Assembly (NCBI GenBank): GCA_963656755.1
Contig: CAVKJH010000032.1
Location: 147 to 64,146 of the forward strand
Source of the DNA: a bacterium
GTDB taxonomy: Bacteria; Bacteroidota; Bacteroidia; Bacteroidales; Bacteroidaceae
Reading direction: 5' to 3'
Length of the DNA: 64,000 nucleotides
Position numbers and translations under genes: made by a program. Every line of letters begins with the position of its first letter. Position 1 is the stretch's first letter. Shown piece by piece: positions 6,610 to 7,443 of the stretch. Under the pieces are notes generated by a model. That model worked only from the letters and a program-made list of their open reading frames with translations, did not search any database and was not told the origin of the DNA.

Positions 6610-7443
6610 TTATTTTGTAAATGATGCTTGTCTTGCCCTCTCTGTCACGAGGTCGGATATGGCCTCTGCGGCCTCTTCCTTGCACCGCGAGAAACTGGGC
6701 CAGTCGTTGAAATCAATGATATAGAAGCGCCCGGCCTCGTCGATGACGGCATCGCCGCCGTAAACCGCCACCCCCGTAATATCGCTTAGCCTGACCACCT
6801 CGCGGTGCAGACTGTCGCTGCTGAACGCATAATGGTGCGCCTTGCCGTTCACTTGTTCGTCGCCGAACTTGGTGATGCCGTCGTCGCTGGGATAGAAAAA
6901 CCTGAAGAATGCGTTCCCTACCCCATAAAACTTAATCAGGTCGCCCACCATGTGCGCACTGGTCACCATGTCTTCTATGCCGCGCTCTTTGAACGCCTGT
7001 ATGGCCAAATCCAAGGCATGGCCGTCCTTGCAGTATACTACATCGGCTTTCGACTGTGCAGCGGCATCGCCCCTTTTCAGCCAATAGCCGTTGTTGCCCG
7101 TTGTGGGCGGCATGGCCACCTGGTGGCTGCGCATCAAAGCGTCGAGCACCGACCGTCGGCAGTTGAGCACCCCCCGGGCTGTGTTGCAGACCAGCCGTCC
7201 GGCATGCTCCATGTCAAGCAGACGGTGCAACGTGGCAGGCTGGCGTGCCATGGTCAGATAGACGTCGGCTTCGGTGGGATTATCCTGAAATTCACATTCG
7301 TCCACAATCCGTATGTCAGCAGCCAGATGTTGCTTTGCCTTTACAAGCTCGCAGGTGCGTTTCAGAATTTCCAAATCCTTGGCTACGGAGTTTGGCGAGA
7401 AACAGTTGTCGCGCCGGATGGCCAGATATCTCATTGCCTCCAT
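6610..7443 (-). CDS. ATP-grasp fold protein with ITPK (inositol-phosphate kinase)-like motifs
   Basis: WLKRGD, GDLIKFYGV, YGGDAVID, IIDFNDWPSF. Start reset to ATG 7443 (or 7434) because the ORF-track extension overlaps the upstream gene. Confidence 0.8.
   Translation of the reverse strand: MEAMRYLAIRRDNCFSPNSVAKDLEILKRTCELVKAKQHLAADIRIVDECEFQDNPTEADVYLTMARQPATLHRLLDMEHAGRLVCNTARGVLNCRRSVLDALMRSHQVAMPPTTGNNGYWLKRGDAAAQSKADVVYCKDGHALDLAIQAFKERGIEDMVTSAHMVGDLIKFYGVGNAFFRFFYPSDDGITKFGDEQVNGKAHHYAFSSDSLHREVVRLSDITGVAVYGGDAVIDEAGRFYIIDFNDWPSFSRCKEEAAEAISDLVTERARQASFTK

Follow-up and report, generated by a model that had tools for sequence, protein, structure and literature searches.

An ATP-grasp protein of the alternative inositol-lipid cluster as a predicted head-group kinase

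The 64,000-nucleotide stretch analyzed here (the window; GenBank assembly GCA_963656755.1, contig CAVKJH010000032.1, positions 147 to 64,146), from a member of the Bacteroidaceae, encodes a 277-residue ATP-grasp protein, P0001, on its minus strand (6610..7443; open reading frame, ORF, from 7443 to 6610). All window coordinates below refer to this strand. Its fold, its catalytic residues and its co-occurrence with lipid genes point to a predicted head-group kinase: P0001 very likely transfers phosphate to some cyclitol and probably does so in the manner of a Kennedy-type kinase, with free myo-inositol as the substrate. The original prediction took the locus for an undescribed system. The cluster itself had been described in 2022 as the “alternative” inositol-lipid cluster (Heaver et al., 2022, PMC9246714), while the ATP-grasp gene and the kinase step are undescribed in the papers found; no paper that gives the gene a function turned up in a search that did not reach subscription papers such as Jorge 2015 or bioRxiv supplements. 

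Catalytic centre and fold

The motifs and neighbors named by the original prediction are all in place. GDLIKFYGV (residues 167-175; 6919..6945) carries K171 and Y173 and aligns with FKFYVL of AtITPK4; YGGDAVID (residues 228-235; 6739..6762) holds the predicted metal ligand D231; and FYIIDFNDWPSF (residues 240-251; 6691..6726) holds the predicted metal ligands D244 and N246 and aligns with the ITPK motif [IV]D-x-N-x-[FL]-P-[SG]-[YF]. Across all six frames of the 2.84-Mb genome there is a single occurrence of the combined pattern K-x-[YF]..V..G-x-D..[IV]D-x-N-x-x-P-x-[YF] (its final part by itself occurs five times), so the motif set is not a matter of chance. The ATP and metal ligands K123, which is the Lys of the lid strand, D231, D244 and N246 are present in 194/194 aligned family members. 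The claim that the catalytic residues are of kinase rather than ligase type is borne out at three ITPK-type positions, R97 (7153..7155; 193/194), K171 (194/194) and D244 (194/194), where RimK and PsnB have K, R and E; Lys at position 97 occurs in 1/194 members, R171 and E244 in 0/194. R97 matches the Arg in SSRE of Entamoeba ITPK1; in RimK a Lys stands there (DK). In profile alignments, the strand with K171 reads KFYGV in the family against FKFYVL in AtITPK4, DIRCFVV in RimK and DVRVYVI in PsnB, and the metal motif IDxNDWPSF stands against VDLNYLPSF, VDVNVFPSY and IDINAFPGY in ITPKs, MEVNSSPGL in RimK and LELNA in PsnB. The D-x-R and E-x-N signatures of the RimK, LysX-ArgX and PsnB ligases are absent.

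P0001 alone finds no match to Pfam ATP-grasp or NCBIfam models, and a search of the PDB returns ITPK1 only at E 0.75. Family profiles searched against PDB sequences find AtITPK4 at 1e-5 (alignment A3) and 5.2e-5 (A6) and Entamoeba ITPK1 at 9.1e-5 (A3) and 4.8e-5 (A6); RimK falls behind both, at 2.2e-4 with A3 and unlisted with A6. The ITPK model PF05770 gives P0001 10.9 bits in a search of its own genome, below the cut-off of 23 bits. Among the contacts that ITPK1 makes with inositol phosphates, H167, K199 and R212 are the most conserved (PMC6900528). The family has Tyr184 (161/194) where AtITPK4 has VKK and RimK has KR, and the basic residue of the R212 type is missing. K171 is taken to be the equivalent of K199 in the human numbering, and H167 presumably falls near D134, a placement made by counting along the human sequence.

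The AlphaFold model of P0001 (mean predicted local distance difference test score, pLDDT, 95.3) shows a three-domain ATP-grasp fold across the whole chain. In structural comparison RimK scores best (Z 20.3, root-mean-square deviation, rmsd, 3.4, 247 residues aligned), followed by LysX (19.2), synapsin (18.0), ITPK1 (17.9, rmsd 3.4, 251 aligned) and PPIP5K2 (17.9), and in the Foldseek ranking ArgX and LysX head the list, with human ITPK1 in third place. The closest named relatives of P0001 are Prevotella-group proteins, and members of that group are about 15-19 residues shorter where the central domain begins (P0001 residues 112-116, about 7095-7110). The longer Tannerella forsythia orthologue (pLDDT 94.3) gives Z scores of 21.9 for LysX, 21.8 for RimK, 20.1 for ITPK1 and 19.1 for AtITPK4. 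Its identity in superposition is 22% to AtITPK4, 19% to Entamoeba ITPK1, 15% to RimK and 14% to LysX, so that identity is higher to the ITPKs in one of the two models. By whole-fold score the modeled structures group slightly nearer RimK/LysX than ITPK1, so that one half of the condition which the original prediction set for its own refutation goes against it. The predicted fold tilts toward the ligases yet leaves function undecided; fold searches cannot split kinase from ligase.

The family shares the ATP-grasp fold with the ITPKs (PF05770; human ITPK1 2qb5, Entamoeba 1z2n, AtITPK4 7pup, potato 8oxe and the Lokiarchaeal LcIKA-D) and with the kinase domain of PPIP5K2 (3t54), at Z 15-20. It also shares with ITPKs the K-F-Y strand, the G-x-D and D-x-N-x-x-P-[SG]-[YF] motifs and a MIPS neighborhood, but it has SPN..ND, M-x-R and NDWPSF motifs of its own and is tied to a CDP-lipid route. 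RimK, LysX-ArgX and PsnB are the nearest whole-fold matches (Z 20-22) and of similar size, but the P0001 family has R/K/D in place of K/R/E. Judged by its aligned residues, P0001 has a kinase-type catalytic centre and yet is no member of the ITPK family; it is not filed there because its fold scores lie nearer RimK/LysX and the second phosphate-binding Arg is missing.

The inositol-lipid cluster and MIPS

P0001 is flanked upstream, across a 14-bp gap, by the nucleotidyltransferase P0002 (PF00483; 7458..8186), a proposed CDP-inositol synthase, and downstream, across 10 bp, by the CDP-alcohol phosphotransferase P0003 (PF01066; 5631..6599), of the type found in the alternative cluster. The haloacid dehalogenase (HAD) hydrolase P0004 (4708..5412), a predicted soluble phosphatase of uncertain substrate, comes next, followed by a DUF5686 protein and a LuxR-family regulator. 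The alternative cluster, described for B. vulgatus and Prevotella, comprises three named genes with functions unconfirmed, which in Bacteroides (Phocaeicola) vulgatus are BVU_RS13095 (NTP transferase), BVU_RS13105 (phosphatidyltransferase) and BVU_RS13115 (HAD); in the published scheme myo-inositol phosphate passes directly to the NTP transferase, with no kinase, and the HAD protein acts as phosphoinositol dihydroceramide (PI-DHC) synthase (PMC9246714). The gene between the NTP transferase and the phosphatidyltransferase goes unmentioned in the parts of that paper covered here, its RefSeq label is “hypothetical”, and neither “ATP-grasp” nor “RS13100” occurs in the paper's review file. The P0001 locus repeats these three gene types in unchanged order, and the loci of its relatives have MIPS, LPG-synthase-TM and carboxypeptidase-like neighbors in common with the alternative cluster. 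Judging from the gap in locus tags and the gene order, BVU_RS13100 is presumably the P0001 orthologue.

Across 79 loci (three of which stop just past the ATP-grasp gene), the nucleotidyltransferase is present in 74, the CDP-alcohol transferase in 72, the HAD protein in 75 and MIPS in 23. This conservation and the match to the published cluster support the connection that the original prediction drew with inositol lipids and CDP-inositol. Fusions of the ATP-grasp domain exist to each neighbor type (nucleotidyltransferase, HAD and CDP-alcohol domain). The ATP-grasp-HAD fusions (P0155, P0157, P0245 and P0259) parallel the HAD-like domain on plant ITPK4 (PMC7614388), probably by convergence. A genome with the alternative cluster would be expected to have MIPS, usually next to it; the genome of P0001 (98.9% complete, 90 contigs) yielded no MIPS, IMPase or B. 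thetaiotaomicron (BT)-type genes. Since the MIPS-less carriers P. distasonis and P. chinchillae also stand in Supplementary Table 5 of Heaver et al. (PMC9246714), this hardly lowers the resemblance to the cluster or the case for membership. Published evidence for the production of PI-DHC or phosphatidylinositol (PI) covers only B. vulgatus, P. veroralis and T. forsythia (PMC9246714; PMC4587543).

How does the ATP-grasp gene relate to MIPS? Two samples were searched, 151 genomes of the genus and 301 of the order, in which kin are not independent. In the genus sample the ATP-grasp gene occurs in 94 genomes, the nucleotidyltransferase in the same 94, the BT-type phosphatidylinositol phosphate (PIP) synthase in 47 and MIPS in 106. 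Genomes with the ATP-grasp gene only number 70 with MIPS and 17 without; for the BT-type cluster only, the figures are 33 and 7; seven of the 151 have both, all without MIPS, and 24 were counted with neither, which makes the two clusters nearly exclusive. In the order sample 41 genomes have full-length ATP-grasp matches (two weak matches were dropped) and 38 of them have MIPS, which occurs in 47 genomes overall; the nucleotidyltransferase is found in 42, covering all 41 carriers, and the exception lies at a contig start. In the family to which the T. forsythia-like genome belongs, 70 of 104 genomes have the cluster. The ATP-grasp gene is thus an obligate partner of the nucleotidyltransferase, almost never dropped even beside MIPS.

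The idea of the original prediction that the gene replaces MIPS fails as a general rule, given that 38/41 carriers in the order and 70/94 in the genus keep MIPS. The variant in which the gene enables MIPS loss is likewise unsupported (17/87 genomes with this cluster only against 7/40 with the BT type only). Single cases exist, as in the closed genomes G317 and G634, where the ATP-grasp gene is present and MIPS absent. The seven dual-cluster genomes of the genus (G306, G333, G348, G399, G424, G428 and G445; loci L080-L084), probably few lineages, may hint at a kinase product that also feeds the PIP synthase, that is, inositol 3-phosphate (Ins3P). Dual-cluster genomes with MIPS exist outside the genus (G017 and G454). 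An ATP-grasp gene serving the BT-type cluster alone was considered for locus L072 and rejected, as both the nucleotidyltransferase and the CDP-alcohol transferase are encoded at other sites in that genome. P. copri DSM 18205 is described with the alternative NTP transferase beside a BT-type set and without the phosphatidyltransferase and HAD (PMC9246714). In G309, G430, G437 and G449 the ATP-grasp match is split in two pieces, possibly by frameshift or decay.

A parallel is T. forsythia, which is reported to lack MIPS and IMPase and to make its inositol lipids solely from inositol in the medium; inositol-phosphodihydroceramides make up about 25% of its membrane lipid (Megson et al., 2015, PMC4587543). 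D6-inositol was incorporated with a shift of +6 Da, all six deuteriums being kept, only two inositol phosphorylceramide (IPC) bands and no other lipid were labeled, and nuclear magnetic resonance gave a linkage through 1-phospho-myo-inositol, either D-1 or D-3 (PMC4587543). The authors report that they could identify no inositol-kinase candidate in T. forsythia and note the same for mycobacteria. Locus L165 has the order nucleotidyltransferase, ATP-grasp, CDP-alcohol transferase and HAD. The ATP-grasp protein encoded there has the same sequence as T. forsythia TFKS16_2839 (BAR53011.1) and shares 35% identity with P0001; its HAD protein is identical to that of ATCC 43037, and the other two partners are identical to, or in a 90% cluster with, T. 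forsythia-named proteins. Genome G690 encodes a protein 100% identical to the L165 ATP-grasp protein, and searches of it found no MIPS, no BT-type PIP synthase and only weak PAP2_3 matches. It has four CDP-alcohol transferases, of which one belongs to the ATP-grasp cluster and another to a separate cluster of CDP type. The T. forsythia cluster is immediately preceded, on its upstream side, by the gene of a 554-residue “putative transporter” (L165:2527-4191; L211:3699-5369), which may be the inositol importer that the authors of PMC4587543 looked for; its family does not recur among the 79 loci.

Bacteroides thetaiotaomicron offers the converse. It lacks the three named alternative genes, and its MIPS mutant made only minute amounts of PI from added inositol (PMC9246714). 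If a CDP-inositol route is to start from free inositol, a kinase is required, and the only gene in the cluster whose product uses ATP encodes residues of the kinase type; from this we infer the kinase. The use of scavenged inositol foreseen by the original prediction is in line with the lack of MIPS and IMPase matches in P0001's own genome and with the T. forsythia case.

Other lineages and residue 67

Beyond the Bacteroidales, the phylum of G451 (a record titled Deltaproteobacteria) has matches in 20 of 151 genomes, 15 of them full-length. In 13 of the 15 loci examined there, the core of HAD, nucleotidyltransferase and ATP-grasp genes stands with a class III aminotransferase and mostly also a Gfo/Idh/MocA dehydrogenase, whose best named match is inositol 2-dehydrogenase, below the cut-off. 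The same loci mostly hold the CDP-alcohol transferase, LPG_TM and sometimes MIPS, and the transferases of distant members score best to IPCT/DIPPS, also below the cut-off. For hygromycin A, an inosamine route by MIPS, phosphatase, dehydrogenase and aminotransferase has been proposed, by way of free myo-inositol (PMC10949010). The aminotransferase-dehydrogenase neighbors, a pair of the type proposed to act on free myo-inositol there, were counted in favor of a free-inositol substrate here. Hopanoid genes border the aminotransferase-type cluster in L120, L123, L127 and L129, with HpnH above the cut-off and the LPG_TM protein scoring to HpnL below it.

A candidate specificity residue, R67 (7243..7245), varies with these neighbors by lineage. 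The survey covered 193 domains, a redundant set from which the duplicates L100-L114 and four gene-less loci were left out. Residue 67 is Arg in 136/193, and only two of these have an aminotransferase or dehydrogenase nearby, both being tandem copies beside a Gln copy. It is Gln, Glu or Lys in 57/193, of which 43 have the aminotransferase or dehydrogenase; for 10 the sequence breaks off within 800 bases, which leaves 4 genuine exceptions. In a tree of 107 rows from which the columns in question had been removed, residue 67 changes state five times, and Arg copies are nested among Gln/Glu copies in L115, L144 and L173. Allowing for kinship, three independent pairs mostly agree and none disagrees with the link, which is not significant (p 0.25). 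The pattern suggests, at the level of sequence, that the enzyme reads a free, modified cyclitol, and the change from R67 to Gln/Glu in aminotransferase lineages, though not statistically significant, may hint at amino-inositol lipids. No description of inosamine phospholipids was found in the literature covered, which excluded most subscription journals and bioRxiv supplements.

Proposed route, alternatives and significance

Every enzymatic step of the route that follows is deduced, the observations being gene order, co-occurrence, fold, residue types, the lack of MIPS and IMPase in the genome and the T. forsythia cluster. Cells would import free inositol or, if they have MIPS, obtain it by dephosphorylation of Ins3P, possibly through the HAD protein. 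The ATP-grasp kinase would convert ATP and free myo-inositol to inositol 1-(or 3-)phosphate, the nucleotidyltransferase would turn this into CDP-inositol, and the CDP-alcohol phosphotransferase would place inositol phosphate on dihydroceramide (or diacylglycerol, DAG) to give IPC or PI. The whole would be of Kennedy type, like choline kinase, cytidylyltransferase and phosphotransferase. The route of Rhodothermus marinus (MIPS, IPCT and BEPIS; Jorge 2015, as cited in PMC4587543 and in the review file of PMC9246714) likewise has CDP-inositol as head-group donor but uses the MIPS product directly, with no kinase or HAD. The known myo-inositol kinases of plants, amoeba and archaea belong to the ribokinase family (PMC6900528). 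P0001 would share with them the reaction, and with Kennedy kinases the place in the pathway, but differs in its ATP-grasp fold.

Why is the gene kept beside MIPS? Retention is best explained if the kinase product differs from Ins3P, as in a relay to the D-1 phosphate, although the seven dual-cluster genomes without MIPS hint at Ins3P. A more far-reaching version is possible though doubtful: P0001 would represent a new class of ATP-grasp cyclitol kinases, obligatory even with MIPS, which together with the HAD protein shifts phosphate from D-3 (the MIPS product) to D-1 and so allows gut and oral Bacteroidales to make host-like 1D-inositol sphingolipids through CDP-inositol from host or dietary inositol; the single change of R67 to Gln/Glu, repeated after duplication, would retune it to amino-inositol and give an undescribed class of inosamine phospholipids in several other lineages.

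Several observations weigh against a kinase of free inositol. Recombinant ITPK1s are unable to phosphorylate it (PMC6900528), which sets the predicted substrate of P0001 apart from theirs. The peptide ligase PsnB is the top PDB match in all four profile searches, with the ITPKs next; PF05770 matches 5/128 members (E<=0.02, best 0.0028) and RimK 4/128 with a better E-value; one distant member matches rimK_fam at 7.9e-11; and RimK-like proteins make up most of the Atlas neighbors, among which Asgard ITPK clusters rank 6th and 15th. Whole-fold Z scores are about 2 higher for RimK/LysX than for ITPK1 in both models, and the Foldseek rows shown for the T. forsythia model are mostly Ddl, with no ITPK among them. 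Carriers have not lost MIPS more often than other genomes (17/87 against 7/40 with the BT type only, as above), so that MIPS-less genomes alone prove little, and the HAD protein is kept in MIPS-less genomes, which a role as Ins3P phosphatase does not explain. With its three further CDP-alcohol transferases, G690 may use free inositol in the eukaryotic manner, with no kinase. For B. thetaiotaomicron, its authors read the failure to use inositol as a limit of uptake (PMC9246714), and the absence of the ATP-grasp gene there is deduced from its missing partner genes.

An unlikely alternative, slightly ahead of the other two, is a true ITPK-like kinase placing a second phosphate on Ins3P (giving, for example, Ins(1,3)P2), with the head group, activated by CDP and still phosphorylated, entering a PIP or phosphorylated IPC lipid that the HAD protein then dephosphorylates, or with higher-phosphorylated head groups as the end product. 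It would sit well with the substrates of ITPK1s, which are Ins1P and Ins3P (PMC7618535) and not inositol (PMC6900528), with the Lokiarchaeal ITPKs that flank MIPS genes (PMC6900528), with MIPS in 38/41 carriers, with the conserved basic residues R11, R67 and K171 of the family and with the near-constant HAD gene (75/79 loci). However, T. forsythia uses free inositol and has only mono-phospho-inositol lipids (PMC4587543), for which another kinase would be needed, and a Tyr replaces the basic residue that follows the KFY strand in ITPK4 and RimK. PIP-DAG was undetected in five alternative-cluster species, but equally in wild-type BT (PMC9246714). Together with the T. forsythia lipids, this leaves the higher-phosphorylated head groups of the original prediction unsupported.

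It is improbable that P0001 is an amide- or ester-forming ligase like RimK, LysX or PsnB that modifies the lipid or its head group, for instance by acylating amino-inositol. Such a ligase would agree with the best Z scores, with the top profile match, with the database label “glutathione synthase/RimK-type ligase-like” on some members and with the amine that aminotransferase neighbors would supply in some lineages. Yet the K/R/E set at 97/171/244 is essentially absent (1/194, 0/194 and 0/194), the Bacteroidales clusters share no conserved gene for an amine or acid substrate, the clusters examined contain no gene for a peptide or carrier protein, and T. forsythia lipids carry plain 1-phospho-myo-inositol (PMC4587543). 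Just as improbable is a reversible phosphotransferase or isomerase (Ins3P, ADP/ATP and inositol) turning the MIPS product into the other enantiomer without HAD, or else a partner of the nucleotidyltransferase that has no catalytic role. ITPKs work reversibly and are able to isomerize substrates (PMC7618535), and fusion to the nucleotidyltransferase is frequent, but MIPS-less carriers have no internal Ins3P to isomerize and the invariance of all metal and ATP ligands argues against a non-catalytic role.

Among the remaining neighbors, the HAD protein has a motif I of DxGGTxD, lacking the usual second Asp, in 11/11 aligned members, and its best NCBIfam match is the YjjG nucleotidase, below the cut-off. 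As the gene is kept in MIPS-less genomes, hydrolysis of cytidine monophosphate or of a lipid phosphate is an alternative to Ins3P. It is separated from the CDP-alcohol transferase gene by 218 bp (5413-5630), where other junctions span 10-42 bp; a promoter and terminator scan of the locus, this gap included, gave signal at shuffle level only, and no phage match was found. The DUF5686/CarboxypepD_reg-like protein (2077..4665) belongs to a family present in 49/79 loci, and this domain type adjoins both inositol-lipid clusters (Heaver et al., 2022, PMC9246714). The LuxR-family regulator downstream (1414..2058; family in 16/79 loci) probably stands outside the inositol-lipid pathway. The LPG_synthase_TM gene of this genome (G000:C88:29609-30637, minus strand) lies off-cluster behind a PdxA-like gene, and in-cluster in relatives. 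Locus L001, from a record titled Eggerthellaceae, encodes four proteins 76-90% identical to the Prevotella-type cluster and is likely a mislabeled bin. A second paralogue of the P0003 family (38-39% identical to P0003) occurs at L210:4847-7838 and L213:5560-8520, together with small cytidylyltransferase-like and short-chain-dehydrogenase-like ORFs (both by motif reading) and an acyltransferase. These loci are a candidate for a separate CDP-polyol lipid route and may explain “orphan” phosphatidyltransferase matches in Heaver's Table 5.

The ATP-grasp gene offers a concrete candidate for the gap stated by Megson et al. (2015), who found no inositol-kinase candidate. If the kinase reading is true, it would revise the 2022 pathway, itself a proposal, in 94/151 sampled Prevotella-group genomes and in 70/104 genomes of the T. 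forsythia-like family, and it would place an inositol kinase on a fold whose known members need a phosphorylated substrate. It would also predict which bacteria of the gut and mouth can make eukaryote-like sphingolipids out of inositol from the host or its diet.

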